Part shown: piece by piece, positions 332 to 16,687 of the stretch
Numbering within the stretch: position 1 is the first letter of the stretch
How the letters are laid out: each line of letters starts with the position of its first letter
Source: Myxococcota bacterium
GTDB lineage: Bacteria > Myxococcota > JACRCW01
Length of the DNA stretch: 16,687 nucleotides
Assembly (NCBI GenBank): GCA_040752415.1
Contig: JBFMGU010000233.1
Location: 1-16,687, forward strand
Direction: 5' to 3'
Notes under the pieces: generated by a model
Database searches by the model: none
Seen by the model: only the letters and a program-made list of their open reading frames with translations
Told to the model about the DNA's origin: nothing
Translations under genes and position numbers: made by a program

Positions 332-512
332 GACACGCTCCCCAGGTCAGGCGGGGAAGCCTACTGAGCGCTTTGGAGGGTCACAACAGCGGGTCCTGCT
401 CCGGCGGGATTCGGTGGCGGCGTACCACCAGACGCTGCAGGTGCCGTCCCCGGTCGCTCGTGTTGGGAATGAGCATGGCCGCCGTCGGCGGGCGCGGGCT
501 AGGGTGGGCCCG

Positions 513-1946: not shown

Positions 1947-2022
1947 ACGCGCGGCGGTCCACCGGTTCCCAGGCGCGCCGCGCCCTGCTTAGATGCGGAT
2001 TCTCGCCCGTGGAGTCCGTTGC

Positions 2023-3768
2023 ATGCCGCCCATCCGGAACACGCCTGGCCCCGCCCCGCTGCCCCGCCCACTGACCACGCCCGCTGGCGTCGCCACGTCG
2101 ACACCCGGCACCACGTCCACGCCTTCCCCATCGAGCAACGTGACCACCGACGTGGTGGATCACCAGCCCTCGTCGCCACGACACGTCCCGGTGGAGCGCG
2201 GCAACTCCCATGCGCAGACGCGGGAAGTGCTGCAGACCTTCTTTGCTCCCTACGACGACCCCATCCAGCAGGACCTGGCGTGCATTCGCGAGGTGGTGGA
2301 GGCGCGCAAGGCGGACCCGCGTGCGTTCGTCGAGGGGGAGAACCCGTACAAGATCCAGTACGCCGTCTACAACCTGCGCAATCCCGCCGTGGTGGCCGCG
2401 CTCAAGGAGGCGCACCTCGCCGGTGTCGACGTGCAGATCCTCATCGAGCAGCACCAGCTGGATGCCGCCAAGACGTGGAACACCGCCGACGAGGAGCTCA
2501 AGGCGGCGGGGTTTGACTTCGCGGCGTCGCACAAGGGGCTGACTGCGGCGCAACGCAAGGAGCTGGACCTCATTGGCATCCAGGGCAGCGGGCTGATGCA
2601 CCTCAAGTCACGCATCTTCTCCCGTCCGGATCCGGCCGGTGGCCCGCCCGTCGAGAAGCTGCTGACCGGCTCCATGAATCCCGGCGACGAGGCGGCCGGC
2701 AACAACGAGACGCTGCACCTCATCACCGACCCGCAACTCATTGCCCGCTACAAGGCCAAGTACCAGTCCGTCCTCGAGGACAAACCGCTGGCCAATGAAT
2801 GGAAGGAGGGCGCGCCGGTCAACGTGCTGTTCACTCCCGCCACCCAGGGACCGCAGGCCGCCGACAAGATCCTGGAGCTGATTGACCAGGAGAAGGAGGC
2901 CATCTTCATGACGGTGTTCTCGCTGCGGAACATCACCAGTCCCAGGCAGCGGGAGTCGATGATCGACAAGCTCAAGAAGGCGAAGGAGCGCGGCGTGGAG
3001 GTGGTCATCATCACCGACCGCAAGCAGTCCGACGGCATTGGCATGGGCGCCAACGGCGGCCAGGGCTACAACGACAAGACCGAGGACCTGGTGAAGGCCG
3101 CGGGCATTCCCGTCTACGAGTGCGTCAATCCCGCCGGGCCGTTCAACGCCATGCACCAGAAGAACGCCCTGTTCGGCCTCACCAACATGAAGGTGGTCAC
3201 CGACTGCGGCAACTGGACGGAAGCGGCGCTCGGCAGCCACAAGAAGAAGGCGGTCAACGACGAGAGCTTCCTGTTCGTGGATTCGAAGAAGCTGGACAAC
3301 AACGCCACCGGCCTGCGCTACCTCAGCAACTTCCTGGTGCTGCTGCGTCAGTACGAAAACCAGCAGGAGGATGCGCCCAAGGCGGGTGCGCTCGTCGAGA
3401 AGTTCACCAAGCTGCCAGGCTGGCCCAAGGTCACCGTCAACTTTGACGCCGTGGCGCGCACGCACTTCGGTCAGGAGGTCTACATCACCGGCAATCACGA
3501 GGCGCTGGGCAATTGGACCCGCTCCGGCCCCGGCCTGAAGATGAATACCACCGGCGGCACCTATCCGCTCTGGCAGGCCGACACGTCGGTGGCGCTGCCG
3601 TTCGGGATCTCACTGGAATACAAGGTCGTGAAGCGCAACGAGCACGGCGAGCTGCAGTGGGAGGGCGGGGAGAACCAGCTCCTCGTCGTGGATTCCGGTG
3701 ACCTGCGCGTGAAGGGCGCGGATCAGCGCGGGAACACACTCAAGGTGGACACCCGCTTCCGCGAGTAG
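2023..3768 (+). CDS. Phospholipase D-superfamily protein (two HxK domains) with C-terminal CBM20 starch/glycogen-binding domain
   Basis: GGAG at 2011-2014 precedes ATG 2023. Motifs MHLKSRIF...TGSMN and MHQKNALF...TDCGNWT, plus PLD-like segments YAVYNL/AHLAGVDVQILIE and KAKERGVEVVIITD. From about 3430, VTVNF..THFGQEVYITGNHEALGNW..TYPLW..LEYKVVK..QWEGGEN matches the CBM20 pattern. Confidence 0.85.
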   Translation: MPPIRNTPGPAPLPRPLTTPAGVATSTPGTTSTPSPSSNVTTDVVDHQPSSPRHVPVERGNSHAQTREVLQTFFAPYDDPIQQDLACIREVVEARKADPRAFVEGENPYKIQYAVYNLRNPAVVAALKEAHLAGVDVQILIEQHQLDAAKTWNTADEELKAAGFDFAASHKGLTAAQRKELDLIGIQGSGLMHLKSRIFSRPDPAGGPPVEKLLTGSMNPGDEAAGNNETLHLITDPQLIARYKAKYQSVLEDKPLANEWKEGAPVNVLFTPATQGPQAADKILELIDQEKEAIFMTVFSLRNITSPRQRESMIDKLKKAKERGVEVVIITDRKQSDGIGMGANGGQGYNDKTEDLVKAAGIPVYECVNPAGPFNAMHQKNALFGLTNMKVVTDCGNWTEAALGSHKKKAVNDESFLFVDSKKLDNNATGLRYLSNFLVLLRQYENQQEDAPKAGALVEKFTKLPGWPKVTVNFDAVARTHFGQEVYITGNHEALGNWTRSGPGLKMNTTGGTYPLWQADTSVALPFGISLEYKVVKRNEHGELQWEGGENQLLVVDSGDLRVKGADQRGNTLKVDTRFRE

Positions 3769-3774
3769 GGTCGC

Positions 3775-5376
3775 ATGCGGCGCGTTGGCGTTCTCGTCGG
3801 GTGGGCGGTGCTGGCGTCGTGCTCGCAGCAGACGCAGCAGGAGGCGTTTGACGCGTGCAACAGCTGCAACGTGGTGGACTCCGGGCGGCACAACGTGGTC
3901 CGCGCCGACGGGGGCGCCCACACGGATGCCGCGCCAACGCCACTGGACGGAGGAAGCATCACGCCGGACGCCGCAGCCGTTCCCGACGCGGCACGTCCGG
4001 ATGCGACGCCCACCGACGCAGGACTACGCGATGCTGCACCACCTCCCGACGCCGCGCTCCCGCACGACGCGGCCGCGCCACCCGATGCGAACGTTTCCGT
4101 CGACGCCACCACGCCGGAGAGCTTCCCGGATGCGACGGTGCGGGATGCGTCGTCGGGAAGTGCGGATGCGAACCTGGGGTGGCCCCTTGATGCGGCGATT
4201 CCCCAGGGCTGCCCGGTGAATCCGCCGGACACGTCGGGAACGGCGTGGAGCGGGTGGGGCAACTTCCAGTACCCGGCCACCACCACGACGACGGAAGGCA
4301 CTCCCAGCCCCTTGGTCTTTGGCCAGGTGTGGCGGGATGGGGAGACGAACCAGCCGGGCGTGGCGTCGGGCTGGGAGGCGGAAGTGGCGGTGGGACCGTT
4401 GGGCGCGCTGCCTACCACCGACGGACGCTGCTGGAAGTACCAGGACGCCGAATACAACGTGGACGTGGGGAACAACGACGAGTACCGCGTTGCCGTCACG
4501 CCCTCCGGCGTGGGGCTGTACGGGTTGTATTTCCGCTACCGGCCCAGCGGCGGCGCGTGGCGCTACGGTGACCTCAACGGCTCCGACGACGGAATCCAGG
4601 TGGACCAGGCCGCGCGTTTCGTCGTCACCGGGGCGGTGGACCGGGCACTGGTGGTGGCAACGGTGAACCTGCATTGCCGTACCGACGCGTGGACCACACG
4701 ACTGCCACTCATCGTCAGTGCGCTGGCGCGCATCTCGCCGGACCTCGTGGCGTTCCAGGAGGATTGCTCGCAGGGGAGCGGCGTGGCGCAGTCGGTGGAG
4801 GTCCGCGCGGAGCTGGCCAGCGTGGTGGGGCGCGGTTACGAGGTGCTGCGCGTGCTCACCCACCAGGCCAACCACGACGGGCAGACGTACGACGAAGGCA
4901 TCAGCCTCATGAGCGCGTTTCCCGTCGAGGCGTCCCATGTGCTGGACCTGCCGTATGCCACCTTCCCCCGCAAGGCGATGGTTGCCGACGTGCGCGTCAA
5001 CACCACGCTCGTGCGTTTCTACGCCACGCACTGGGAGTACGGGACCGAGAACGACGCTGCACGGGAGGGCTCCGCGCAGGCGATCCTCGCGGACGTTCCG
5101 TCGGGGCGGGTGACGTTCGTGGCGGGCGACTTCAACACCGCGCCCACGGCGCAGGCCGTCGCGACGATGCGTGCCAGCATGACCGACGTGTGGGCCGCGG
5201 CGAATCCGTCGAGCGCGGGGCTCACGTTCCCGGCGAGCAATCCCACGCGGCGTATTGATTACGTCTTCATGACGCCCGACGGCACGGTGCGGGGTGCGCG
5301 GATTCTCGACGAGCGCAACGGTGCGACGCTGATGAGCGACCATCGCGGCGTGGCGGTGGCGGCCGAGTTGCCGTGA
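3775..5376 (+). CDS. Lipoprotein: Asp-Ala linker, 'GNNDEY' beta-sandwich module and EEP-family phosphoesterase domain
   Basis: MRRVGVLVGWAVLAS-C lipobox; starts 7 nt after the upstream stop. EEP motifs VATVNLH, PDLVAFQE, ATHW, AGDFN, RIDYVF, SDH. Middle domain GWGNFQYP..VFGQVW..YNVDVGNNDEY..YFRY..WRYGDLNG. Confidence 0.88.
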   Translation: MRRVGVLVGWAVLASCSQQTQQEAFDACNSCNVVDSGRHNVVRADGGAHTDAAPTPLDGGSITPDAAAVPDAARPDATPTDAGLRDAAPPPDAALPHDAAAPPDANVSVDATTPESFPDATVRDASSGSADANLGWPLDAAIPQGCPVNPPDTSGTAWSGWGNFQYPATTTTTEGTPSPLVFGQVWRDGETNQPGVASGWEAEVAVGPLGALPTTDGRCWKYQDAEYNVDVGNNDEYRVAVTPSGVGLYGLYFRYRPSGGAWRYGDLNGSDDGIQVDQAARFVVTGAVDRALVVATVNLHCRTDAWTTRLPLIVSALARISPDLVAFQEDCSQGSGVAQSVEVRAELASVVGRGYEVLRVLTHQANHDGQTYDEGISLMSAFPVEASHVLDLPYATFPRKAMVADVRVNTTLVRFYATHWEYGTENDAAREGSAQAILADVPSGRVTFVAGDFNTAPTAQAVATMRASMTDVWAAANPSSAGLTFPASNPTRRIDYVFMTPDGTVRGARILDERNGATLMSDHRGVAVAAELP

Positions 5377-5693: not shown

Positions 5694-8147
5694 TCAGGGA
5701 CGCGCGTAGACCACGAAGTACTCGAACGCGGCACCGGTGCTCAGCGTGGCCAGGCCGATGTTGCCCACCGGGTTCACCGTGGAGCCCGCTTCCACCGTCT
5801 GCGAATAAACCGTGCACGCCAGGCCGTCGGCGCCGGCCATCAGTCTGACGCGCGTGCCGCGGTCACACGCCAACGCGCTCCCGGTGTCCGCGCTGGCCAG
5901 CCAGGTCAGGGCGCCGCTGGTCTCCTCGCGATACAGCGCGGCGTACGCGTCGTACTGGTCCTGCTCCACCGTGCAATAGGCGCTCGTCTGGTCCGTGAGG
6001 TCTGCCCACACCACGACGTAGTACGGCGGACGAACCACGGCGCGCTGCACCAAGGTGGTCTCCACCACCACAGACCGCAGCGTCCCGCTGGCCACCAACG
6101 TGCCCGCGGAGCTTTCCGCAAGGTTCGACTGCACCACCCCGTCGGGCAAGGGATTCCATGTCCCCGCCCACGATTGCCACTCCGGCCCCAAGCCGTCCCT
6201 GAACGGGTCGAAGAACGCGATGAAGTCGCCCTCCAACGTCGGATTCGGGTCGCACGCGTCTCCCACGCCATCCGCCAGCACCCCGGCGTCCTCCTCCTGG
6301 ATGTCGGACTGGTTGGAGTTGGGCGTGGCCGGGCAGTTGTCGCAGAGGTCGCCCACGCCGTCGCCGTCCTCGTCGTGCTGGTCGGCATTGGAGACCACGG
6401 GACAATTGTCGCAGGCGGAGCCGACGCCGTCCTGGTCGGGGTCGCCGCTCTCGTCTGGAATCAACGGGCACGAATCGAGCGCATCATCCACTCCGTCGCC
6501 ATCGTCGTCGTCGTCGCAGGCGTCGCCCTTGAAGTCGGCGTCGGTGTCGACCTGTCCGGGGTCGGGCGCGTCGCGACAGAGGTCGCACTCGTCGGGTGCG
6601 CCGTCAGCGTCGCGGTCGGAGGGTTTGCCACTGGCGGACGGACACCGGTCACACGCGTCGCCAGCACCGTCCCCATCCGCGTCATCCTGGGATGGGTTTG
6701 GCTGGAGCGGACAGCTGTCCTCGTCGTCGGGAAAGCCATCCCCGTCGTCATCCACCGCGGGCAGCCCGGCGAGATGGTTGGCGTTGATTTCCTCCGGCGT
6801 GAGGCCGCGGTTGTAGATGGCCACGAGGTGGACCTGGCCCTGCCACTGACGGTTCAGCGTCTCCTCGTTTCCGACGAGCAGGTGGTACGACTCGTCCCAG
6901 CCGGCGATGGGTCCGGAGGCGGAGAGCTGCGAATCCGCGAGCACGCCGTCCACGTAGGCACGCTCCCACCCGTCGGAGAAGACCATCACCAGGTGCTGCA
7001 TGCCGCCGCTGAGCACCGCGTTGTGGATTTCCGGGCACCATCCCGCTTCACCGGTGTCGGGCGTGCGCAGACGCATCACCATGGAACCCAGGCTCTGTCC
7101 CAGCGTGAAGTTGCGCTCCGCGGTCCCCGGCGAGAACGAGACGATCCGCGACGGTCCATCCAGCGTGAGGTCCGCCGGCGTCACCCATGCCTCCACGGTG
7201 AGCTCCCCGGTGTCGTTCACCGCCTGCGCGAGGCGCGCCGCGGGGTCGGGAGTGCGCAACACCACCGGCGTTCCATCCAGGGTGACGCCGCGCTCGTCGC
7301 GCGTCAGGAGTGCAGGGTCGTTCAACGCCAGGTCCAGCGCCGGGCTCACCGACGAGGTGTCCAGAGCCATCCCGTCGGGGTCGTCGATGAAGGTGTACAA
7401 CGCCTGCAGGTTGGCGGTGGCGCGCGCACGCCCGGTGGTCACGCCGACGGACGAGCTCGCGGACTCACCCGCGTCGTGGAATGCCATGACCCGGTACTCG
7501 TAGGTGGTCTCCGCAACGCAGGACGTGTCGACGACGTTGGTGGCGTCCGCCGGCAGGACCACAACCTCCGTCCAGCCCTGGCTCGCCGGGTCCCGCCGCT
7601 CCACGCGGAAGCCGGTCTCGTCGTTGGAGGCGTCCTCCCAGCGCAGGTGCACCCGGTCATGGAAGGCGACGTAGGCCACGAGGCCGGTGGGTGCGTTGGG
7701 GGGCGCCAGCCCACCGGATGAGCTGGACGACGACACGCTCGCGTTGCTCGACGAGGAACTGGCCACGCTCGCGGAGGCGGCACTGGCGCTCGAGGTCACG
7801 GACGCGCTCGAGCTTTCTCCTGTTGATGAGGACGACGAGGACGTGCCGCCGCTGGAAGTCGTTGCCCCAGACGAAGACAGGCTCGACGATGATGACGACG
7901 CCGCGGAGGCGCTTGACGAGGCGCTGGAGGACGATGACGACGAGGATGAGGCCGCAATGCCCGGCGCACGGGCACCTTCCACGCACTCGCCGCCCTCACA
8001 TCGCTCGTTGCCGGTGCAGTCTTCGTCGGCGTTGCACAATCGGATGCACTTGCCGTCGCGGGCAACCTCGTCGGACTCACAGGTGACGCAGCCCCAGCTG
8101 GCCGTTGCTACCGCCACCACCCCCAGGAGGTGAATCCGTCCAAGCAT
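5694..8147 (-). CDS. Surface lipoprotein: Cys-rich module, Ser-rich linker, FN3, LamG/ConA-like domain, thrombospondin type-3 Ca-binding repeats, C-terminal beta-rich domain
   Basis: GGAGG precedes ATG 8147; MLGRIHLLGVVAVATASWG-C lipobox. CNADEDCTGNERCEGGEC; PNAPTGL..LRWEDASNDETGFRVER..YEYRVMA (FN3); LTVEAWV..RIVS..QHLVMVF..YVDG..WQGQVHLVAIYNRGLTPEEI (LamG); repeated DxDGDGxGDACDxCP (TSP3). Confidence 0.9.
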   Translation of the reverse strand: MLGRIHLLGVVAVATASWGCVTCESDEVARDGKCIRLCNADEDCTGNERCEGGECVEGARAPGIAASSSSSSSSSASSSASAASSSSSSLSSSGATTSSGGTSSSSSSTGESSSASVTSSASAASASVASSSSSNASVSSSSSSGGLAPPNAPTGLVAYVAFHDRVHLRWEDASNDETGFRVERRDPASQGWTEVVVLPADATNVVDTSCVAETTYEYRVMAFHDAGESASSSVGVTTGRARATANLQALYTFIDDPDGMALDTSSVSPALDLALNDPALLTRDERGVTLDGTPVVLRTPDPAARLAQAVNDTGELTVEAWVTPADLTLDGPSRIVSFSPGTAERNFTLGQSLGSMVMRLRTPDTGEAGWCPEIHNAVLSGGMQHLVMVFSDGWERAYVDGVLADSQLSASGPIAGWDESYHLLVGNEETLNRQWQGQVHLVAIYNRGLTPEEINANHLAGLPAVDDDGDGFPDDEDSCPLQPNPSQDDADGDGAGDACDRCPSASGKPSDRDADGAPDECDLCRDAPDPGQVDTDADFKGDACDDDDDGDGVDDALDSCPLIPDESGDPDQDGVGSACDNCPVVSNADQHDEDGDGVGDLCDNCPATPNSNQSDIQEEDAGVLADGVGDACDPNPTLEGDFIAFFDPFRDGLGPEWQSWAGTWNPLPDGVVQSNLAESSAGTLVASGTLRSVVVETTLVQRAVVRPPYYVVVWADLTDQTSAYCTVEQDQYDAYAALYREETSGALTWLASADTGSALACDRGTRVRLMAGADGLACTVYSQTVEAGSTVNPVGNIGLATLSTGAAFEYFVVYARP

Positions 8148-8382
8148 GCCACCGCCTCCGCGACCCCGACGGGAACACCCCGAAGCGGACGCCGCTGGGC
8201 GCAAACTGTCAAGGGAGCCACCGCACGCCCCCCTGCCGGAATGCGTGATCGGGAGGAGAGCCTGACGTCATCAAGGGGCGGAAGCAGCGCCGCGTGCGCG
8301 TCCTCAGGCATCCCCGACGCGTCGAGCAGTCACATCCCGCGGGAGGTACCGGCGCTCTGAAGGTCTGTCGGACATTGCCAGG

Positions 8383-8492
8383 AGAAGGAAGTCAGAAGTC
8401 AGAATGCAGAAGTCAGAAGGTGCTTGCCCGTCGTCGTCACGGGACCACCTTCTGACTTCTGACTTCTGACTTCTGACTCCTGACTTCCTTCT
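8383..8492. repeat. Inverted arrays of 7-bp tandem repeats (GAAGTCA)n / (TGACTTC)n forming a long hairpin
   Basis: Left arm 8383-8422 AGAAG-GAAGTCA-GAAGTCA-GAATGCA-GAAGTCA-GAAGGTG. Right arm 8446-8492 CACCT-(TCTGACT)x4-CCTGACT-TCCTTCT. Inner mini-stem CCCGT/ACGGG. Lies about 40 nt downstream of the MFS stop, so it may also act in termination. Confidence 0.9.
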
Positions 8493-8532
8493 TTGGGGAT
8501 TCTCTGGGGATTCTCCGACACCCCATGAGAAC

Positions 8533-9861
8533 TCAGTTGGCGTCGCGCTGGCGCATCAGCACGCTGCCCCGCCACAGCATCACGGCGGAGAGCACACACG
8601 CCACGGGGCAGATGAGCAGGGAGTAACGCACCAGCGTGGGATCCTGCGCCACGCCGAGGACGTCATTGATGCGACCCACGATGGGCGGCGTGATGCCGTA
8701 GCCCACGATGTTGACGATGAAGAAGTACACGCCCACGCCGAGACCACGCAGCTTGGGGCCCACCACGTCCTGGATATCCGCCGCCGCGGGCCCGAGCCAC
8801 ATCAGCGCCACGCCCATCAGGACGAACATGGGCATCAGGAACACCGTGACGCTGTCCGCAAACAGCATCACCATCCACAACGGCGCGGAGACCAGCGCAC
8901 CCATGGCGGTGAACTGCATGCGACCACCCTTGTGACGCGCGCGGAACCAGTCCGCACCGTAGCCGCCCAGGATCGCGCCCAGCAGGCCACCCACCGACGC
9001 GCACAGGCCGATGTAGAAGCCCACCGTCTTCAGCTCCAGGCCAAACGCCTTGTGCATGTACGTGGGCATCCAGATGCTGAGGCTGTTGCCCGCCACGGCG
9101 AGGAGCGCGTAGCCCGCGTAGTGGAACCACAGCGCCTTGACGCGGAAGAGCACGCGCCAGTCGGGCTGCTCGCTGCTGTCCGTCGTCGTGGCGCGCTCGG
9201 TGACGCCCCGGGCCGGCTCGCGCAGCATCAGGACCGCCACGGCCATGATGATGCCGGGGAAGCCCAGCAGGTAGAACGCCCAACGCCAGCCGTAGGTGTC
9301 GCCAATGAGGCCGCCCAGCAGCATGGCCACTCCCGCGCCCATGGGGATGCCCGCGGAGTAGATGGCGCCAATGGTGGCGCGCATGCGCGGCGGGAACAGG
9401 TCGCTGAGCAGCGAGAGCGCAGCGGGTCCCAGCGTGGCCTCACCCACGCCCACCATCACGCGACAGACGAAGATGCCCGCGAACGTGTCCATCCAGCCCG
9501 TGAGCCCGGAGAACACGCTCCAGATCACCAGCCCCACCGCGATCATGCGCTTGCGCACCACGCGGTCCGCCAGGCGACCAAAGGGAATGCCCAACAGCGT
9601 GTAGAAGATGACGAACGACGTCGTGCCGAGCAGCGCGAGCTCGAGGTCGGTGAACTTCATCTCCTTCTTGATGGGCCCGAACAGGATGTAGATCAGCGTC
9701 CGGTCCAGGTAGTTCAGCATGTACACGACAAACAGCACCGCCAACGCCACCCACGACGAGCCCGGCACCGGGGCCTCGGCGGCAACGGGGGCGGACGCGG
9801 GAGCAGGCGCGGGCGGGTCGACGCGGACCGCGGTGGGACGGGACGAAACGGCAAGTGACAT
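8533..9861 (-). CDS. Major facilitator superfamily transporter, spinster-like
   Basis: GAGGAGGGG precedes ATG 9861 (start reassigned from 9978). About 12 hydrophobic segments; MFS motif A GRLADRVVRK; YMLNYLDR and RVMVGVGEAT segments typical of the spinster-like branch. Confidence 0.9.
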   Translation of the reverse strand: MSLAVSSRPTAVRVDPPAPAPASAPVAAEAPVPGSSWVALAVLFVVYMLNYLDRTLIYILFGPIKKEMKFTDLELALLGTTSFVIFYTLLGIPFGRLADRVVRKRMIAVGLVIWSVFSGLTGWMDTFAGIFVCRVMVGVGEATLGPAALSLLSDLFPPRMRATIGAIYSAGIPMGAGVAMLLGGLIGDTYGWRWAFYLLGFPGIIMAVAVLMLREPARGVTERATTTDSSEQPDWRVLFRVKALWFHYAGYALLAVAGNSLSIWMPTYMHKAFGLELKTVGFYIGLCASVGGLLGAILGGYGADWFRARHKGGRMQFTAMGALVSAPLWMVMLFADSVTVFLMPMFVLMGVALMWLGPAAADIQDVVGPKLRGLGVGVYFFIVNIVGYGITPPIVGRINDVLGVAQDPTLVRYSLLICPVACVLSAVMLWRGSVLMRQRDAN

Positions 9862-9872
9862 GGTTCCCCTCC

Positions 9873-10754
9873 TCAAAGGGACAACCGCCAGACTTCCTTG
9901 GCGGTGGTGAAATCGTCGGGAATGGTTTGGGCCAGGGTGGTGACCTCGGAGATCACGCGCGCCACCTCGCCCAGGCACTCGTGCACCCAGACGTGGGTCA
10001 CCTGCCGCGCGTCGCCCACCACGCCCACGCGTTGCAGGCGCACGGTGACCCGCAGCGTGTTGCGCAGGATCAGGTCGGGCAGCACCAGCGTGCCGCGGCC
10101 GGTCACTTCCACCTCGTAGTTGTCGTCCAGCGCGGTGGGCAGCCCCAGCACCACGGCGTTGCTGGCGCGGGCCTGGGTGACCGCGCGCGTGCCTTCCTGC
10201 AGCGGGAAGGGATAGAGCACCACCGGCACGTCGTAGACCACCAGGGTGCGGCCCTCCGCGGGGTCCGGCTCCGACGACGCGCTGCCGTACAGCCTCACCC
10301 CGTCGTCATCCACGCGCAGCGGGCCCAGCAGCTTGCCGCCCGGCACCAGCGGACCGGCGTGCTCCGCCTGCGGGAAGCTTCCCTGGAACCACTGGCCTTC
10401 CATGCTCTGCAGCTGCAGACGCCCCAGCGGCTCTCCCTCGGGGTCGGGCACGGAGAAGTCCCAGCGACGGTCCCCGTCCTCGTCGGTGAAGCCCAACACG
10501 TCCACCGTCACGGGGCCCTGCCGCACACGCACCCGGGCCACCGCGCCTTCCACGAAGGGCATCTCCGCGTACTCGATGACGCCGTCATTGTTGCCGCGAC
10601 AATCCGGCGCCTGCACCACCGGCTCGTAGCTCTCGTCCTCGGCGGACGTCTCCGGGGCCAGGCCGTAGGGCGCGCCCTCGCACGCGGCGCACAGCAGCAC
10701 CGTCAACGCCAGCGCGGAACGCAGTCCATGGTGCAGTGCAACATCAGCGCGCAT
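9873..10754 (-). CDS. Lipoprotein of unknown function, paralog of 13313..14329
   Basis: LALTVLLCAA-C lipobox; EF-hand-like NNDGVIEYAE. Shares WDFS, FPQ, G.AS.EP...TL..YD.PV....FP and RG.LV.P...LRV blocks with the other lipoprotein. Start overlaps the upstream stop by 11 nt. Confidence 0.85.
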   Translation of the reverse strand: MRADVALHHGLRSALALTVLLCAACEGAPYGLAPETSAEDESYEPVVQAPDCRGNNDGVIEYAEMPFVEGAVARVRVRQGPVTVDVLGFTDEDGDRRWDFSVPDPEGEPLGRLQLQSMEGQWFQGSFPQAEHAGPLVPGGKLLGPLRVDDDGVRLYGSASSEPDPAEGRTLVVYDVPVVLYPFPLQEGTRAVTQARASNAVVLGLPTALDDNYEVEVTGRGTLVLPDLILRNTLRVTVRLQRVGVVGDARQVTHVWVHECLGEVARVISEVTTLAQTIPDDFTTAKEVWRLSL

Positions 10755-12333
10755 AACCCAGCCTCACAAGGACCATGGTGGTGGGAAGGTTGGAGCTGTT
10801 GGCGCTCCGCTTGGCCAGACCCGCCAGGGGAAAGAGCACGCCGGCGTCGGTACGAATGGAGAAGGAGCCCATCTGCAGCGTCATGGCGCTGTCGACCTCG
10901 AACCCCAGCGGGTTGGCCCCGCCAGGCGCACTGCGCGCCAGCAGCGCGTGCGAGTACACGGTGTTGAACTCAAAGCGCATCCCCTCGACGGGCTGCAACG
11001 CGAACCGACCCCGCGCATACGCCGCCTCGCTCACGCCCCCCAGCAGCGTGCGCCAGAGGATGAGATCCACGCGGTACATCGGGTGCATGCGGAAGGAGTC
11101 GAACCGGCGGTCGCGCACGCCGTCCACCTGCGGGCCAAAGATGTCTCCCCGACGGGACTCCAGCAGGCCGGTGCTCTCCGACGCAGGGAATCCGGGGCTG
11201 GGATCCGGGCTGGCCACGCCCGCCTCACCCAGCAGACCAAACCGGCCGCGCAGCGGCAGCCACTCCGCCACCAGCACGCCCGCGAACGGGTTGCCCGTGA
11301 CGGGCTGACGGAACTCCACGCCGGGGTACGGCGAGGGATTGCCAATGTGCAGGTGCGTGAACACGCCTTCCGCTTCCACGCGCAGGTCGCGGAACCAGAA
11401 GCGGACCCACACGTCGGCCAGCGCGGCGAAGTAGTCGCGACGCACCGTCTCATTCTTGTTGAGCCCCGGAGTGGCGGAGAGCGTCTGGTAGTAGACCGGA
11501 TTGTCGCGCAGCTGGAACTGCGTGGTGAGCGCGGCGCCGTAGTCCAGCACCCAGCCCCCGGCGCGACGGTGCATGTCCACTTCCCACGGCGCGCGCCAGC
11601 GCAACACCGCCAGGGAGAACGCCTGCTGGCCCAGCAACGGGGAGGTCGGGTTGGGGCCCACCGCGTTGTGGTTGCCGCGCGGACCGCTGGCCGCGATGTC
11701 AAACGCCGCCGCCAGGAAGTGGCCCACCATGGGCATCCACCACGCCACGCGATCCGCGCGGTCACCACCGTCGTCGTCGAGATCGTCGCCGGCGTTGGCG
11801 GCAATGCCCAGGCCGAAATGCGTGGGGGAGCGCCCCGCGGAGATCACGCCCAGCGGCGTCATGGCCTCGGCCACCGCGCTGCGCAGCTTGAAGGCGCCCT
11901 GGGCGGCGGTGACCGGATCCTGGAACCCGGTGCCCGCCACAATGGCCGCCCGCCCGTTGTACGGCGTACCACGCGGAGTTGCGCCAAAGGCCAGGTTGTC
12001 CAGCACGTCCACCTCGACAAAGACACGCACGTCCTCGCCGAACCACAACGTGGGAGAGAGACGCAGCCGCATGTCCGCGCCCGTGGTGGTGCGCAGCGGC
12101 CCGTCGCCACGGGGCCAATAGGTCTGACCGCTGGGAGAAGGACGCGCCTCCAGGTCCATCCCGTTGTAGACCGCGCCGCGCACGCGCAGGTGGCCCTTGA
12201 GGGAGAACAGCTCACCGGGCTTGTGCTCGCGGAAGGTCTCGCCCGGGTCACCAAAGCCCACGCGCGCGTGCGCCGTCATGCCCGACGACACCAACGCCAC
12301 CACGGCCACCCATCGCATGCAGCGCGTCATCAT
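10744..12333 (-). CDS. Outer-membrane beta-barrel protein, resembling myxobacterial TIGR04551-type barrels
   Basis: ATG 12333 overlaps the hydrolase TGA (ATGA). Sec signal MMTRCMRWVAVVALVSSGMTAHA; alternating amphipathic strands (FSLKGHLRVRG, ADMRLRLSP, VRVFVEVDVLDN, LRVEAEG, LGFEVD); C-terminal MVLVRLGYAR. The family name is from recollection of the motifs. Confidence 0.75.
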   Translation of the reverse strand: MMTRCMRWVAVVALVSSGMTAHARVGFGDPGETFREHKPGELFSLKGHLRVRGAVYNGMDLEARPSPSGQTYWPRGDGPLRTTTGADMRLRLSPTLWFGEDVRVFVEVDVLDNLAFGATPRGTPYNGRAAIVAGTGFQDPVTAAQGAFKLRSAVAEAMTPLGVISAGRSPTHFGLGIAANAGDDLDDDGGDRADRVAWWMPMVGHFLAAAFDIAASGPRGNHNAVGPNPTSPLLGQQAFSLAVLRWRAPWEVDMHRRAGGWVLDYGAALTTQFQLRDNPVYYQTLSATPGLNKNETVRRDYFAALADVWVRFWFRDLRVEAEGVFTHLHIGNPSPYPGVEFRQPVTGNPFAGVLVAEWLPLRGRFGLLGEAGVASPDPSPGFPASESTGLLESRRGDIFGPQVDGVRDRRFDSFRMHPMYRVDLILWRTLLGGVSEAAYARGRFALQPVEGMRFEFNTVYSHALLARSAPGGANPLGFEVDSAMTLQMGSFSIRTDAGVLFPLAGLAKRSANSSNLPTTMVLVRLGYAR

Positions 12334-13316
12334 GGCGTGGCCACTCCACCCTGGCCGCTGGAGACCCGGGCGCGCGGCGCGGCGCCTCCGTCCACCACCG
12401 CCAGCAGCTCCTGGATGACGTTGAGCAACGCGGCCGGACGCTCCCACGGCGGAACGTGACCACACCTGGTCAGGACCTCCAGGCGCGTGTTGTCGATGTA
12501 GCCCGCGAGCTTCTTCCCGTCGGCCAGCGGCGTGACGCGGTCATCCTCCCCCCACACGATCACGGTGGGAACGCGCAGCGTGTTGTAGCGCTTCTGGTCG
12601 CGCGTGTAGTCCATGCCTCGCACTGTGTGCAGTGCAGCATAAAGCGCGCCTTCCTGGACCATGTTGCTGCGGAACTCCCCAATGGATTCCGGCGTGGCAA
12701 AGCGCTGCTGGTCGGAGAACGCCAGGATGTACTTCTCCCCGACAACCTCCTTGAACTGCGTGGCGAAGATGAACTCGCCCAGGCCGGGCACCTTGGCCCA
12801 CCGGAACGAGGACGGGATCTGCTCCTCCAGCGCGAACGCGTCGACGAGCACCAGCCCCGCGAACCGCTCGGGATGTTCCAGCGCGGCCTTGAGCACCACG
12901 CCGCCGCCGTAGGAGTGGCCCACCAGCACCGGCTTCTCCAACTCCAGCGCGTCGGCCAGCGCCACCAGGTCGCGCGCGTGCACCGCGGGACCGTACTTGC
13001 CCCCCGGACGCTCCGACTTCCCGAACCCGCGCTGGTCATAGGACACCACCCGACGCGACTCCGCGAGCGCGGGCTGGATGAGCGTCCACGTCTCCAGCCG
13101 GGAGCCGTAGCCGTGCACCATGATCACCGGGTGACGACGTGACTCGATCCGCTCCGGCGCGGTGTCACGCACGCGCAGCCAGGCGTTGTCCACCAGCACG
13201 TACTTGTCGGACTGCGGGGCGTCATGCGCCAGCAGGGGCGCCTTGGCGGAGTGCTTCCCCGGCGCGCACGCAGCCAGGAGCACCGCTCCCACGAGAACCA
13301 GGCGCGTGCGCTTCAT
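12330..13316 (-). CDS. Alpha/beta-fold serine hydrolase lipoprotein (esterase/lipase-like)
   Basis: MKRTRLVLVGAVLLAA-C lipobox; HGYG oxyanion loop, DQRGFGKS, nucleophile GHSYGG, acid WGEDDRVTP, His CGHVP. ATGA overlaps at both ends. Confidence 0.92.
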   Translation of the reverse strand: MKRTRLVLVGAVLLAACAPGKHSAKAPLLAHDAPQSDKYVLVDNAWLRVRDTAPERIESRRHPVIMVHGYGSRLETWTLIQPALAESRRVVSYDQRGFGKSERPGGKYGPAVHARDLVALADALELEKPVLVGHSYGGGVVLKAALEHPERFAGLVLVDAFALEEQIPSSFRWAKVPGLGEFIFATQFKEVVGEKYILAFSDQQRFATPESIGEFRSNMVQEGALYAALHTVRGMDYTRDQKRYNTLRVPTVIVWGEDDRVTPLADGKKLAGYIDNTRLEVLTRCGHVPPWERPAALLNVIQELLAVVDGGAAPRARVSSGQGGVATP

Positions 13317-14329
13317 GGCGCCAACCCCAGCCGCCGGAGCTCCGCCGCGGTGCTGAACTGCAGCTCCTCCTCACCTTCCAGGCTGGCCACGTACGCAACC
13401 TGCGAATAGCAGGGCGTCATGAAGCTGTAGCGGATGTACTTGTAGGTGAGCACGAAGGGCCAGAACGCAATGGGCACATCCACCTGGTGCTGCAAGCGCA
13501 CGCGGAGCACAGGGAAGGTTCCCGCCGGTGTCACCAGGTGGCCGCGCGCGTCGACGCTGAGATCGTAGGTGTCACTGCTGGAGTAGAACGTGTTGCCTTC
13601 GAAGGTGCCGCTGACGTCGGTGTTGCTGGTGAAGGCCTGGTTCAGCGTCACGGGGAACCGCACGATGTCCACCGGCGGGTCATAGGTGAGCAGCGTGTGC
13701 TCCGGCTCCTGGCTGGCCACGCCCAGCATCTGCACCACGCTCTCGGTGCGCTGGTAGATGGCGTAGTTGGTGGACTCGCCGTCGAGCGGGACCGCGTAGG
13801 CGCCCTGCGGGAAGCGATTGCCGAACCAGAGGTCGTCGAGCGGCAGCGCCTCCAACGTGAAGGCCTGGTCACCGGGCGCCGCCGCGGAGAAGTCCCACAC
13901 CCGCAGGCCCTGGGAGTCCGTGGTGCCCACCAGGTCCACCGGGATCCCGCCGTCCGCGCGCGCCTCCACGAACCGGCTCTCCACGTTCAGCGCCAGCGGG
14001 AGCTCCTCGGCGGTGAGGACGCCGTCGTCATCAAAGGGACACGCGCCACCGGGCCGGCCGCCGTCCCCCTGCCCTCCCGCGTCGTTGCCGTGGGCGGTGG
14101 CCGCGTCCCCGCGCTGCGTGCCGCCGTCCGTCCGGCTCAGCCCGGCGTCCAGCACGCCGTGGGGATCCTCATCCGCGCCCACACACTGGCCCGCGCGACA
14201 CACCGTCTCGAGCGGACAGTCATCATTGGCACTGCACGCGGTACCGGAGCAGCCGGGGACAGCCGCAACCGTCCCGGCCAGCAACGCGGCCAAGGCGATC
14301 AGACGAGGGAAGGTGGGAGCGGCAACCAT
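13313..14329 (-). CDS. Lipoprotein with Cys-rich module, paralog of 9873..10754; first gene of the minus-strand operon
   Basis: Start reassigned to ATG 14329: MVAAPTFPRLIALAALLAGTVAAVPG-C. CSANDDCPLETVCRAGQC, DAG-type linker, DDDGVLTAEE, then a beta-rich domain. Stop overlaps the hydrolase ATG. Confidence 0.85.
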   Translation of the reverse strand: MVAAPTFPRLIALAALLAGTVAAVPGCSGTACSANDDCPLETVCRAGQCVGADEDPHGVLDAGLSRTDGGTQRGDAATAHGNDAGGQGDGGRPGGACPFDDDGVLTAEELPLALNVESRFVEARADGGIPVDLVGTTDSQGLRVWDFSAAAPGDQAFTLEALPLDDLWFGNRFPQGAYAVPLDGESTNYAIYQRTESVVQMLGVASQEPEHTLLTYDPPVDIVRFPVTLNQAFTSNTDVSGTFEGNTFYSSSDTYDLSVDARGHLVTPAGTFPVLRVRLQHQVDVPIAFWPFVLTYKYIRYSFMTPCYSQVAYVASLEGEEELQFSTAAELRRLGLAP

Positions 14330-14340
14330 GACGGTGGCGT

Positions 14341-14393
14341 GATTAATGTGCGCTGCCACAAAAATCAAGGCCCTTTTATTGCGCTCCGCAACA
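14341..14393 (-). promoter_or_regulatory. Putative promoter of the minus-strand operon with degenerate PhaR-type boxes
   Basis: AT-rich island. The minus strand reads GTTGCGGAGCGCAATAAAAGGGCC-TTGATT-TTTGTGGCAGCGCACATTAAT. 14347-14366 TGTGCGCTGCCACAAAAATC nearly duplicates 14599-14617. Confidence 0.55.
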
Positions 14394-14597
14394 CGACCGA
14401 TACCCGGATCACCCCCGGATCTCCCTCCCACCGGCCCGTCCGCCCCGCGCCACCGCCCGCCGGCCGACCTCCCCGCCGACGCCCGACCGAAGACGATCCT
14501 CGTCGTCATGCCCAACCACAACGCCCGCGGCGCCCGGGCCGCACCATCAAGGAATATGCACCGCCCGGGTTGCCTGCCGCGCGGATCCGCTGATTTG

Positions 14598-14612
14598 TTG
14601 TGCGCTGCACAA
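14598..14612. promoter_or_regulatory. PhaR-type operator, perfect palindrome TTGTGC-GCT-GCACAA
   Basis: Matches TGCRNYGCASMA on both strands and sits just upstream of the -35 of the phasin-like gene. Confidence 0.75.
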
Positions 14613-14619
14613 AAATCCC

Positions 14620-14648
14620 TTGACTCCGGATCAGCTCATGTCTAGGTT
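14620..14648 (+). promoter_or_regulatory. Sigma70-type promoter of the pha operon
   Basis: TTGACT (14620-14625), 17-nt spacer, TAGGTT (14643-14648); GGAG RBS at 14681 and ATG at 14692. Confidence 0.65.
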
Positions 14649-14691
14649 GCGTCTTGCCACGGCGGACGTGGCCCCCAACCGGAGAATTCAG

Positions 14692-14973
14692 ATGACCTCG
14701 AACAACTTCATGATCGACCCCACCGAGCAGCTCAACGCCTTCACCAAGCAGTACCAGGAGGGTGTGCGCACCTACCTGAACTTCGTGGGGACCATGGCGG
14801 ACAGCCTGGACAAGCAGGTGGCGGACGGCCTGCGCGTGGCGGGCAGCGTGCAGGATCACCTCGCGGCTTCCCGTCGCCAGGGCATCAAGATGTTCGAGGA
14901 GGCGGTGGAGCGCAGCCTGGGCATGAGCCAGACGCTGGTGACCAACATGACGCAGGCCTGGAGGACCAAGTGA
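14692..14973 (+). CDS. Small helical protein (93 aa), putative phasin / PHA granule-associated protein
   Basis: GGAG 14681-14684 before ATG 14692; amphipathic helical composition; first gene before the phaE-like gene and phaC, downstream of a PhaR-type box. Function inferred from context. Confidence 0.6.
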   Translation: MTSNNFMIDPTEQLNAFTKQYQEGVRTYLNFVGTMADSLDKQVADGLRVAGSVQDHLAASRRQGIKMFEEAVERSLGMSQTLVTNMTQAWRTK

Positions 14974-15284
14974 ACAACCTGCAGCCCTTCAACATCACCA
15001 CCTGGCCCCTCTACCAGGCCTGGGAGAAGGCCACCTCGCGCATGCTGGAGAACACCATGCGTGACAACAGCTTCCTGGAGCTCTCCGGCCAGATGATGCG
15101 GAACATGCTGCAAAGCAAGAAGACGCTGGACCGCATGTTCGGCCTGGAGGCCGCGGGAGACAACCACTACGCCACCGAGCAGGACGTGGCGGAGCTGCGC
15201 CAGCGGGTGGTCGAGCTGGAGCGCCGGATCGTGCGGCTGGAGTCGGGCCGCAAGGGCGGCAACGCGGCGGGAGCAGAGGCATGA
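14970..15284 (+). CDS. phaE: Short PhaE-like PHA synthase subunit (104 aa)
   Basis: GTGA and ATGA overlaps couple it to both neighbours. C-terminal ATEQDVAELRQRVVELERRIVRLE resembles the PhaE / Bacillus PhaR C-terminal coiled coil; directly upstream of phaC. Confidence 0.6.
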   Translation: MNNLQPFNITTWPLYQAWEKATSRMLENTMRDNSFLELSGQMMRNMLQSKKTLDRMFGLEAAGDNHYATEQDVAELRQRVVELERRIVRLESGRKGGNAAGAEA

Positions 15285-16363
15285 TGAACAGCGCTTCCTA
15301 CCTCCGCCTGGCGGACCACGCCCACGCGTGGACCAGCGCGGCGTCCCGTGCTGCGTTGCAGCAGACGGCCAACACCTTCCGCCTGTTCAAGGGGCAGGGG
15401 CCGGTGCCGACGCCCACCCGCGGAGCCACCCCGCATGAGACGGTGGCCGAGCGGGAGGGCATCAAGCTCCTGCGCTACCCGGCGCGTGATGGGAAGGCCA
15501 AGGCGTCCGTTGTCGTCGTGGCGTCGCTCATCAACCAGTACTACGTGATGGACCTGCTGCCGGAGGTGTCGGTGATTGACACGCTGGCGCGCAAGGGCAT
15601 GGACGTCTACGTGCTGGACTGGGCGGCGCCCGGCGCCGAGGGCCCGCAGCGGGACTTCAGCGACTACGCCGACGGGTTCATCCCGTGGGCCGTGGAGCAC
15701 GCCAGCAAGGGTGGCAAGCCGCCGCACGTGCTGGGCTACTGCATGGGTGGCACGTTGGCGGTGATCCACGCCGCGCGTCATCCCGAGCAGGTGCGCTCGC
15801 TGACCCTGCTGGGCGCTCCGGTGGACTTCCACAAGAGCGGCGTGCTGGCCACCTGGACGGACCGCCGGTACTTCGACGCGGACCTGATGGTGGACGCGTT
15901 TGGCAACGTGCCGCCGTTCATGCTGCAGAGTGCGTTCAAGACCATGGCCACCGCGGGCATGGTCAAGAAGTACTCCGACCTGTGGGAGCGCGCCGACGAC
16001 GAGGGTGCGGTGCGTCACTTCCTGGCGGTGGAGTCCTGGCTGGAGGACAACATTGCCTTCCCGGGCGGGCTGTACCGGCCGTACATCCGCGACTGCTACC
16101 AGGACAACAAGCTCATCAAGAGCGAGATGGTGGTGGCCGGGAAGAAGGTGGAGCTGAAGAAGATCACCATGCCGCTGCTCACCGTGGTGGCCACCAAGGA
16201 CAACATCTGCGCTCCGGCGGCGTCGCTGGCGCTGCAGGAGGTGGCGGGCTCCACGGACAAGCAGGCCATCGAGTTCGAGACCGGCCACATCGGTCTCACC
16301 ACCAGCAAGCGCGCCCTCAAGGAGATGTGGCCGCGCGTGGCCACGTGGATGCTCGAGCGGTGA
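15281..16363 (+). CDS. phaC: Class III/IV-type polyhydroxyalkanoate synthase subunit PhaC (360 aa)
   Basis: GATPHETV..LLRY, SLINQYYVMDL, DVYVLDW, lipase box GYCMGG (catalytic Cys), APVDF, VDAFGNVP, ATKDNI (Asp), TGHIG (His). The ~40 kDa size fits class III/IV. Confidence 0.88.
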   Translation: MMNSASYLRLADHAHAWTSAASRAALQQTANTFRLFKGQGPVPTPTRGATPHETVAEREGIKLLRYPARDGKAKASVVVVASLINQYYVMDLLPEVSVIDTLARKGMDVYVLDWAAPGAEGPQRDFSDYADGFIPWAVEHASKGGKPPHVLGYCMGGTLAVIHAARHPEQVRSLTLLGAPVDFHKSGVLATWTDRRYFDADLMVDAFGNVPPFMLQSAFKTMATAGMVKKYSDLWERADDEGAVRHFLAVESWLEDNIAFPGGLYRPYIRDCYQDNKLIKSEMVVAGKKVELKKITMPLLTVVATKDNICAPAASLALQEVAGSTDKQAIEFETGHIGLTTSKRALKEMWPRVATWMLER

Positions 16364-16405
16364 TGTGACCCCCCGGGGGAATTTGCTGCAGTGCAATGGA
16401 ATTGG

Positions 16406-16477
16406 CGGGGCCGGGCCCCTCCGTCGTGGCGTAAGCGGCCGACACGACGTGGGGTGCCCGGCCCCGTGCTTTTCCTT
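16406..16477 (+). terminator. Long GC-rich hairpin followed by a pyrimidine tract, possible terminator of the pha operon
   Basis: CGGGGCCGGGC (16406-16416) pairs with GCCCGGCCCCG (16456-16466); CGTCGTG (16422-16428) pairs with CACGACG (16443-16449); followed by TGCTTTTCCTT. Confidence 0.45.
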
Positions 16478-16505
16478 GCGACGTTCATGGCATGTGGGCA
16501 GCGTC

Positions 16506-16668
16506 GTGGGGGCTGCTGATGCACGTCGGTGGACGATGGATCGTCAGCCCGCGGCCGAGCGGCGCGCGGCGGAACCAGAACGGGACACGACGACAACGAT
16601 GTAGGGGCTGCCGATCCGCGTTGGTGGCCGGATTGCGCGCAGTGGCAGCGGATCGTCAGCCCGGGGCC
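16506..16668. repeat. Two related GTRG-initiated palindromic units (REP-like)
   Basis: 16506-16535 and 16601-16630 are identical at 24/30 positions; both units end GGATCGTCAGCCCGsGGCC (16538-16556, 16650-16668). In unit 2, 16605-16619 pairs with 16648-16662 (14/15). Confidence 0.6.
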
Positions 16669-16687
16669 AGCGGTGCGCGACGGCACA

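Follow-up and report, generated by a model that had tools for sequence, protein, structure and literature searches.

An envelope gene cassette beside polyhydroxyalkanoate synthase genes in Myxococcota: a candidate ester-uptake module of the PhaR regulon

Polyhydroxyalkanoate (PHA) metabolism is usually treated as a cytoplasmic matter, its components being the synthase, the phasins, the regulator PhaR and the depolymerases. The locus described here raises the question of what a set of genes for the cell envelope might be doing back to back with such synthase genes. It lies on contig JBFMGU010000233.1 of a Myxococcota bacterium (assembly GCA_040752415.1), a stretch of 16,687 nucleotides, called the window below, which is the whole of one contig (C150) of an 11.0-Mb, 520-contig genome. 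Five minus-strand genes, referred to as the cassette, run head to tail at 8533-14329 in the order LipoA, hydrolase, barrel, LipoB and MFS (major facilitator superfamily carrier), and diverge from three plus-strand genes, namely those for a 93-aa protein, a 104-aa PhaE-like protein and PhaC. The answer argued for here, mainly from synteny and from operator boxes, is that the first four of these genes, the core, may quite possibly be an envelope module of the PhaR/PHA regulon in a subset of Myxococcota, a proposition we regard as nearly evenly balanced. The eight genes are as follows.

13313..14329, minus strand: LipoA, lipoprotein, cassette gene 1 (open reading frame and start call; paralogue of LipoB)
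12330..13316, minus strand: lipid-anchored alpha/beta hydrolase with GHSYG and Ser135-Asp259-His287 (Abhydrolase_1, 3.8e-34)
10744..12333, minus strand: predicted 18-strand outer-membrane beta-barrel, TIGR04551 sister (TIGR04551, 261 bits; structure model)
9873..10754, minus strand: LipoB, paralogous lipoprotein, predicted closed beta-barrel-like fold (structure model)
8533..9861, minus strand: spinster-like MFS carrier, a lineage-specific addition (MFS_1, 2.6e-54)
14692..14973, plus strand: small orphan gene, 93 aa, "phasin-like" by position only (GC3 0.95, GTGA overlap)
14970..15284, plus strand: PhaE-like short protein, 104 aa, resembling the C-terminal part of PhaE (weak PF09712)
15281..16363, plus strand: PhaC, class III-like, with Cys154-Asp307-His336 (TIGR01836, 281 bits)

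The junctions are close throughout. LipoA and the hydrolase, and likewise the hydrolase and the barrel, meet in an ATGA overlap, the barrel and LipoB share 11 nt (ATGCGCGCTGA), and LipoB and the MFS gene are separated by an 11-nt gap containing GGAGG; on the other strand the 93-aa gene runs into the PhaE-like gene by a GTGA overlap and the latter into phaC by an ATGA overlap. Third-position G+C content (GC3) is 0.88-0.95 across all eight genes, as against 0.68 in a non-coding intergenic open reading frame (ORF). The layout of five tightly coupled genes divergent from pha genes is therefore just as the first-pass annotation of this DNA had described it.

Conservation and synteny of the cassette

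Relatives of the barrel were found 168 times in species-representative genomes, and the best 80 species-level loci, all from metagenome-assembled genomes, were retained, each with flanks of up to 10 kb; the window proteins, together with those of a typical locus (L082), were mapped onto them by tblastn, with L082 and L033 serving to check the family assignments. Of the 65 loci with enough flank, 63 have the whole core. In the usual arrangement FabG, PhaC, a 204-aa protein and PhaR lie on one strand, and divergent from them, tightly packed, come LipoA, hydrolase, barrel, LipoB, the PhaE-like protein (typically about 109 aa), an acyl-coenzyme A (acyl-CoA) ligase (about 570 aa) and PhaC, the core genes being translationally coupled with the synthase genes in these canonical loci. 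The associated genes were found in the following numbers of loci, the PhaE-like homologue standing after LipoB.

PhaC: 65 of 80 loci
Acyl-CoA ligase: 65 of 80 loci
PhaR: 57 of 80 loci
PhaE-like: 55 of 80 loci
FabG: 28 of 80 loci
Window-type MFS: 1 of 80 loci

PhaR lies upstream in 55 of the 63 loci that have at least 4 kb of upstream sequence, while among the 58 with at least 5.5 kb downstream a co-directional PhaC follows in 45 and the acyl-CoA ligase in 43; the full order, with PhaR divergent from core, PhaE-like gene, ligase and PhaC, is seen in 32 of 47 loci, and PhaC is present in 39 of the 44 loci that have ample sequence on either side. Synteny of the cassette with phaEC and phaR, which the first-pass annotation had singled out as the way to check its proposal, is thus clearly positive across Myxococcota, and the clustered ligase supplies an activation step that was absent from the path proposed earlier. 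Among ORFs from three reference loci no other gene recurs in more than 10 of the 80, so that the conserved set contains an activating ligase and no inner-membrane exporter.

The association persists at barrel identities of 32-37% in most loci, that is, through deep divergence, and in several gene orders. PhaC directly follows LipoB in L027, L033, L058 and L076, while in L067, L081, L091, L093 and L101 it is upstream of LipoA that a ligase and a pair of PhaC-like genes (identity to the window PhaC 26-30%) are found. In the nearest clade (L027, L033 and L076) FabG and PhaR are divergent from a hydrolase lacking a signal peptide, the ligase, LipoA, the lipoprotein hydrolase, barrel, LipoB and PhaC. 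In L086 and L100 the cassette is preceded by a gene for an EEP-family lipoprotein and not by pha genes; this upstream protein is a homologue of an EEP-family lipoprotein also encoded in the window, and neither locus has a pha gene or a PhaR box.

A wider view comes from a sample of 301 Myxococcota genomes, in which PhaC was taken as a TIGR01836 match at E<=1e-30. The lipoprotein pair or cassette is present in at least 51 of these, a figure that is a floor because it comes from a stricter first look, and a PhaC-family match in 125. When the tables were compared by hand, such a match was found in 48 of the 51 cassette genomes and in 77 of the 250 others, counts that overstate independence, the genomes being related, and that describe a pattern rather than constitute a test. 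The outcome that the first-pass annotation had named as fatal to its idea, cassettes mostly in genomes lacking phaC, did not occur.

On the synthase side, the window PhaC scores 281.3 bits on TIGR01836, under the cut-off of 365.3, which is exceeded in only 5 of the 301 genomes. It has a GYCMGG cysteine box at residue 152 (G-x-C-x-G type), and among the PhaCs of the loci Cys154 is kept in 85 of 88, Asp307 in all 88 and His336 in 86; in three of the 88 PhaC-like proteins Ser replaces Cys at the nucleophile position. The PhaE-like label is a weak one, resting on a PF09712 match (E 0.0098, 15.6 bits against a cut-off of 25.7) over 76 C-terminal positions only, and the L082 orthologue (6.2e-05) is also under the cut-off. 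As for the 93-aa protein, the name "phasin-like" given to it earlier is unsupported, since it describes position only: no Pfam match was better than E 0.11 (the phasin families PF05597 and PF09361 being unmatched), a word-based search returned no homologue, comparison with the 204-aa protein beside PhaR in L082 gave no similarity (E 2.9), and the Phasin_2, PHB_acc and PhaE clusters found at 0.84-0.86 in the Atlas are leads only.

The window genome's own REARRANGEMENT has the ancestral pha locus split, its pieces lying on separate contigs. On contig C29 (L136, 4906-8423) PhaR diverges from PhaC2, which is followed by an acyl-CoA ligase 46% identical to that of L033, and because the latter is the cassette-linked ligase of the nearest clade the ancestral cluster is taken to have been split, the window keeping the cassette, gaining the MFS gene and facing a different PhaC set. 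A second PhaR gene, with a weak phasin-like C-terminal match (PF05597, 23.0 bits, cut-off 28.8), lies on contig C186 (L137, 457-2317) and is directly followed by a gene for a patatin-like phospholipase. The two PhaR genes match PHB_acc_N at E 1e-25 (C29) and 2e-27 (C186).

PhaR-type operators around the cassette

The first-pass annotation had drawn attention to a TGC-N3-GCA box occurring in both operons of the window, and here one part of its claim stands and another does not. Counted plainly, TGCNNNGCA has 11 matches in the window against a mean of 9.2 in shuffled copies, 60 of 200 shuffles reaching 11; this is chance level, and the apparent enrichment was dropped in favour of a matrix built from other genomes. 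In those genomes TGC-N3-GCA occurs in 45 of 51 spacers between PhaR and LipoA, at 2.1 per kb compared with 0.51 per kb in the rest of the loci, and the flanks within the spacers extend it to a 15-17-bp palindrome, wTGkTGC-N3-GCAmCAw. A matrix of the extended box (71 sites, from other genomes only) was then run on the window with 50 shuffles of the window as control. The eight best sites all fall within 10.7-16.4 kb and nothing in the first 8.5 kb scores above 11.1; the maximum per shuffle averages 9.2 and never exceeds 18.0, so that two window sites, at 23.8 and 23.0, lie above them all. An operator common to both operons is accordingly upheld for the extended box.

10726..10746, unstranded: top-scoring PhaR-type box, at the barrel/LipoB junction (matrix 23.8)
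14595..14615, unstranded: strong PhaR-type operator TTGTGCGCTGCACAA, intergenic, followed after 9 nt by a TTGACT hexamer that precedes the small gene (matrix 23.0)
14343..14396, unstranded: two degenerate boxes beside the LipoA start, the first of which, GTGCGCTGCCACAAAAAT, is the strong box plus one extra C (matrix 12.3, 12.1)
16381..16468, plus strand: weaker PhaR-type box and terminator-like hairpin downstream of phaC (matrix 14.7)
12622, 15103, 16381, 15346, 14343, 14376, unstranded: with the two top-scoring boxes, the best eight matrix sites (those at 16381, 14343 and 14376 being the ones already listed)

The extended palindrome agrees with TGCRNYGCASMA, the consensus that DNase footprinting gave for Bradyrhizobium diazoefficiens PhaR, and positions 14601-14612 of the window, TGCGCTGCACAA, are identical to the footprinted phaP4 site, both as printed in PMC6201568. 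Judged by its sequence, the extended box is a genuine PhaR-type operator. Across the 80 loci 198 sites score at least 18, and these cluster around phaR on both sides. The only same-family genome, G001 (locus L026), which was not used for the matrix, has the cassette and the MFS gene with no pha neighbour; it has three boxes (18.5-23.3) at the LipoA start, and none at the barrel/LipoB junction among sites scoring at least 14. Two promoter candidates read by eye, TTGACT-N17-TAGGTT and TTGATT-N17-TAATCA, fail the criteria of a consensus scan and are retained as -35-like hexamers only.

The resemblance to the PhaR-PhaP circuit of B. diazoefficiens (PMC6201568) thus extends from the palindrome with its TGC-N3-GCA core and the phaP4 site to the placing of the window box beside a -35-like hexamer before a small gene, in a genome that has PhaR genes; where the present case differs is that the regulon, as defined by predicted sites, appears to include an outer-envelope operon of lipoproteins, barrel and hydrolase, no mention of which was found in the literature searched.

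It is at this point that one must ask whether synteny and boxes signify anything more than inherited adjacency, with an independent nutrient-uptake or other envelope unit having been inserted beside phaR in an ancestor and carried along with no functional coupling. The genomes compared are related, and repeated synteny can reflect descent; moreover, the window lineage is rearranged, with PhaR, PhaC2 and ligase now on another contig, the G001 cassette stands without a pha neighbour, and five of the 44 well-flanked loci have no PhaC. Against this, the link survives the deep divergence and the several gene orders described above (PhaC after LipoB, two PhaCs upstream, or the divergent arrangement of the window), and PhaR boxes have been kept both in the window and at the LipoA gene of G001 after its separation from pha genes. 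Adjacency by descent as the whole explanation appears to us very improbable.

The envelope proteins and the direction of traffic

Lipoprotein signals are predicted (by a heuristic) in 62 of 66 orthologues of the hydrolase and in 56 of 64 and 74 of 77 for the other cassette lipoproteins, by which measure envelope placement of these proteins is conserved. LipoA and LipoB, both with such signals, are paralogues, as had been proposed (31% identity over 254 aa, E 1e-16); LipoA consists of a signal ending in AAVPGC, a Cys-rich module and a beta-barrel-like domain. Neither protein matched any family of Pfam or NCBIfam. The model of LipoB, from an 89-sequence alignment, has a pLDDT (predicted local distance difference test) of 93.8 and is all-beta and closed-barrel-like; Foldseek against the PDB gave no match at E<=0.001, while in a wide structural search the nearest entry was the Bacteroides-group lipoprotein BDI_3050 (4fvs; Z 9.5, root-mean-square deviation 4.2, 173 residues aligned), followed by E. 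coli YmcC (Z 7.8) and by LolA (Z 5.4), LolB, LppX, LmcA and lipovitellin-type lipid binders (Z 4-6). Best Z values of 7-8 are typical in such a search for models with no clear match. Those for LipoB are middling; they suggest, and do not prove, a binder of hydrophobic ligands.

At E<=0.001 the family profile of these lipoproteins collects 1837 representative proteins, of which 433 remain at E<=1e-30. The nearest Atlas clusters are mostly from Myxococcota, and one nearby cluster carries the automatic name "outer membrane lipoprotein-sorting protein". One library representative, P0084 (713 aa), looked at first like a fusion of an MFS protein with a lipoprotein, and was set aside as probably two adjacent genes read as one, having an internal lipoprotein signal peptide; if it is two genes, the pair is a second, unrelated MFS beside a member of the LipoA family.

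A third member of the LipoA family occurs in the same genome, on contig C509 (L024, 314-2856). The folded domain of this copy is 50% identical to that of LipoA, and the stop codon of its gene overlaps, by ATGA, the start of a gene for a type-1 short-chain PHA depolymerase, a secreted enzyme whose tail is MYXO-CTERM-like (NF050058, 294 bits, cut-off 150). No such third copy was found in the 300 other Myxococcota genomes sampled, and this single case ties the lipoprotein family directly to extracellular polyester hydrolysis. Two further ORFs on this contig (3178-4734 and 4747-5496) are unrelated to the profiles of the barrel and the lipoproteins (probability 0.1), match no family, and are probably not genes.

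The hydrolase fits the earlier description of a lipid-anchored GxSxG serine hydrolase well, with its lipobox LLAAC and the motif GHSYG: Ser135, Asp259 and His287 are invariant in all 72 aligned orthologues and an HG oxyanion motif is present in 71 of them. Its solved relatives are hydrolases and esterases of a generic MhpC/BphD type, together with the membrane-bound enzyme 6i8w (residues 8-303, E 1.1e-17), the Pseudomonas aeruginosa phospholipase PlaF; it also matches the model of the acyltransferase OlsI (E 3e-13).

These last two matches lead naturally to a reading in which the cassette serves envelope lipid housekeeping, co-regulated with PHA: the cell's own outer-membrane lipids or lipoproteins would be remodelled by a phospholipase or acyltransferase together with LolA-like carriers, PhaR would be in control because storage and membrane lipid turnover are balanced together, and the ligase would recapture the fatty acids released. 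The closeness of the lipoprotein fold to LolA, LolB, LppX and LmcA, and the automatic name of the Atlas cluster, are both in its favour, as are the lysolipids that the spinster family moves, the patatin-like phospholipase gene behind the second PhaR, and the L086 and L100 cassettes, which follow an EEP-family lipoprotein gene instead of pha genes. From such housekeeping one would not expect a cassette found in just 51 of 301 genomes and set closely between phaR and phaE-ligase-phaC (32 of 47 loci), nor a LipoA paralogue that is paired with a polyhydroxybutyrate (PHB) depolymerase, and the fold matches are all middling. We consider it unlikely, if by no means negligible.

The barrel scores 261 bits on TIGR04551, under the cut-off of 300, and is by sequence a sister group of that family, on which no paper was found in the full-text literature searched; no Pfam family matches it. 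A true member of TIGR04551 is present in the same genome (C387, L025, 1462-3654, 470.6 bits), with a long N-terminal extension and on a short contig that carries no cassette genes. The barrel model (pLDDT 88.7) has 18 strands, and its best solved fold by Foldseek is AlgE (E 6e-16, template-modelling (TM) score 0.53/0.63), AlgE entries filling the top ranks (E 6e-16 to 1e-13, TM 0.50-0.53 by query) ahead of MOMP and then the OprD/Occ porins (about 1e-9 to 1e-10). Seven arginines placed on strands (Arg27, Arg29, Arg66, Arg68, Arg145, Arg172 and Arg276) are invariant in a 79-sequence alignment, and probably face the lumen. The first-pass annotation had suggested predicting the complex of the barrel with the lipoproteins; the run with LipoB scored 0.51, the best of three controls scoring 0.00, with runs agreeing in at least 76% of contacts and a partner pLDDT of at least 76. 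Of 157 solved complexes 116 attain the mark thereby passed, as do 2 of 215 mismatched pairs, and scores up to 0.60 among those passing it include 18 of the 157 solved complexes and both mismatches, so that the prediction is a weak pass, lending computational support of a weak kind to a barrel-LipoB contact.

Since the nearest solved fold of the barrel is that of an exporter, traffic in the outward direction keeps some claim on the data. The ligase and PhaC-like enzymes might make a surface or periplasmic oligo-hydroxyalkanoate, or a hydroxy-fatty-acid conjugate, which, by analogy with the AlgE, AlgK and AlgL proteins of alginate export, would leave through the barrel, with the lipoproteins acting as carriers or plugs and the hydrolase doing the trimming. 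The position of AlgE in the fold search ahead of uptake porins speaks for this, as does the weak likeness of LipoB to YmcC, a lipoprotein encoded in an E. coli operon that is paralogous to one for capsule export, and so does the translational coupling of core and synthase genes. On the other hand, an 18-strand architecture is common to AlgE and OprD-type uptake channels, and the TM scores are moderate; no signal or membrane segment was noticed in the PhaC translations, the neighbourhood has no conserved inner-membrane exporter, PhaR boxes and a PhaE-like partner indicate ordinary cytoplasmic granules, and the enzyme with which a LipoA paralogue is paired is an extracellular depolymerase, that is, a degradative one. 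Export of this kind seems to us decidedly unlikely.

The MFS carrier is closest by sequence to the spinster proteins rather than to other MFS families, as had been thought: its best solved relatives are the bacterial homologue HnSpns (6e8j, E 3.7e-36) and human SPNS1 and SPNS2 (E 1e-23 to 1e-26), with DgoT (4.5e-15) behind them.

Elsewhere in the window, a three-gene block on the plus strand at 198-5376 encodes an EEP-family protein, a PLD-like protein with a CBM20 starch-binding domain and the EEP-family lipoprotein already mentioned; searches of solved structures with the EEP and PLD genes gave nothing bearing on the cassette. The gene at 5694-8204 on the minus strand encodes a secreted protein of 836 aa that has fn3, LamG-like and thrombospondin type-3 repeat domains as well as a long Ser-rich linker, and that matches the MtsC cell-cohesion family weakly (105.6 bits, against a cut-off of 350).

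A proposed path from external ester to granule

The reading preferred here, which we hold tentatively and somewhat short of conviction, is that of a PhaR-controlled envelope module which would cleave esters from outside and send the (hydroxy)acyl acids inward, to be activated to CoA esters and stored; in what follows we infer a direction of transport, a substrate, contacts between proteins and a mode of regulation. Exogenous esters, whether PHA oligomers released by surface depolymerases or acyl-lipids, would be bound by the LolA/YmcC-like lipoproteins and cleaved in the envelope by the lipid-anchored Ser-Asp-His hydrolase, and the (hydroxy)acyl acids so produced would cross the outer membrane through the barrel. 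Passage of the inner membrane would in the window's lineage be by the added spinster-like MFS carrier, while elsewhere there would be no dedicated carrier, the acids being trapped by the clustered acyl-CoA ligase in a vectorial acylation like that of FadL and FadD. PhaE-like/PhaC would then polymerise, either directly from 3-hydroxyacyl-CoA or after FabG or beta-oxidation steps. In the current model PhaR is released from DNA when granules form, and the PhaR-PhaP circuit is known also from Ralstonia and Paracoccus; here PhaR, once off the DNA, would switch on the module and the small granule-protein gene together. As to the substrate, the lipoprotein-depolymerase pair on C509 would favour a polyester, whereas long-chain-type ligase models, FabG, the spinster kinship and the LolA-like fold would favour a lipid.

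PhaR boxes and synteny suggest, and fall short of proving, a route that feeds scavenged esters to storage granules. The earlier import-and-store proposal thus survives in part, gaining from synteny, the extended box and the ligase step, and losing by the poor conservation of the MFS carrier, the plain box count and the phasin label.

A number of points weigh against import and storage, and are best considered together. Most of them concern the proteins. Models of extracellular PHA depolymerases (NF050057, NF050058, NF050059 and PF10503) are absent from the 25 best of the 34 NCBIfam families, and from the 8 Pfam families, matched by the hydrolase, whose best PHA-related scores are far under the respective cut-offs (i_nPHAscl, 72 bits against 300; TIGR02240, 40 bits against 250), and its solved relatives are the generic hydrolases and esterases named above. 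The barrel, with 18 strands against the 14 of the FadL fold, has no resemblance to FadL (3dwn, TM 0.27/0.31), its nearest solved fold being, as modelled, that of the alginate exporter. The window-type MFS gene adjoins the cassette in one locus of 80, that of the same-family genome G001, so that the carrier is no part of a conserved system and the "complete path" of the first-pass annotation holds for the window's lineage only; this restriction to a family-level lineage, and the joining of the gene to the cassette, also set it apart from the spinster proteins it resembles. In the nearest clade the ligase follows a hydrolase with no signal peptide, and could therefore re-activate monomers of internal PHA rather than imported acids.

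The remainder concern regulation and distribution. Among the eight testable loci with no PhaR match four have boxes and four (including L086 and L100) do not; the strong box of the window lies about 270 bp from the LipoA start, beside which there are only degenerate copies; and a simple sigma-70 consensus promoter scan of 8300-16687 found none. Five of the 44 well-flanked loci are without any PhaC (L026, L032, L060, L069 and L100), as are three of the 51 cassette genomes, all of one family, by the criterion of a PhaC match, and to these must be added the relatedness of the genomes remarked on earlier.

Comparison with known systems helps to place what is new. Fatty-acid uptake in E. coli, where FadL and FadD act by vectorial acylation, likewise joins an outer-membrane channel to a cytoplasmic acyl-CoA ligase with no conserved inner-membrane carrier; the cassette differs in its AlgE/OprD-like barrel, in adding two lipoproteins and an esterase, and in having its ligase clustered with PHA synthase rather than beta-oxidation genes. 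With AlgE and the OprD/Occ channels the barrel has its 18-strand architecture in common, these being its best Foldseek matches, but identity is 8-13%, TM scores are 0.42-0.53 by query, there is no sequence-family match, and the genes around the barrel are those of lipoproteins and of the pha cluster rather than alg genes. In the Pseudomonas phaC1-phaZ-phaC2 cluster, with its PhaZ/ACS1 PHA cycle, a ligase re-activates released 3-hydroxy acids, and many cassette relatives similarly have two synthase genes flanking a block that contains a hydrolase, together with an acyl-CoA ligase; their hydrolase, however, is a secreted lipoprotein and not a granule-bound depolymerase, their synthases are class III-like with a PhaE-like partner, and outer-membrane components are present. 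The components are thus all of known kinds, and an envelope module embedded in a PHA synthase cluster with common operators was not found described in the full-text literature searched (subscription journals lying mostly outside it), in agreement with the earlier statement that no characterised system of this composition was known.

A conserved envelope module in about a sixth of the sampled Myxococcota would mean that the PhaR regulon has an envelope arm hitherto overlooked, and would provide a first functional context for two families that lack annotation, the TIGR04551 sister group and the LipoA/LipoB family. Should import be the right reading, there would be a direct route from external polyesters and lipids to storage granules, which would bear on myxobacterial carbon turnover in soils and sludge, on bioplastic degradation and on the engineering of PHA or lipid-waste upcycling. 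A bolder version, which we think doubtful though worth stating, is that of a dedicated scavenge-to-store path, in which foreign polyester or prey lipids would be degraded at the cell surface and the (hydroxy)acyl fragments would pass through a lipoprotein-assisted 18-strand pore to the clustered CoA ligase and so to the cell's own granules, bypassing central metabolism; PhaR would sense granule growth and in response open the way for import, a feed-forward loop. Were it true, saprophytic or predatory Myxococcota would possess an outer-membrane uptake machine of a new class, forming part of an operon for a storage polymer.

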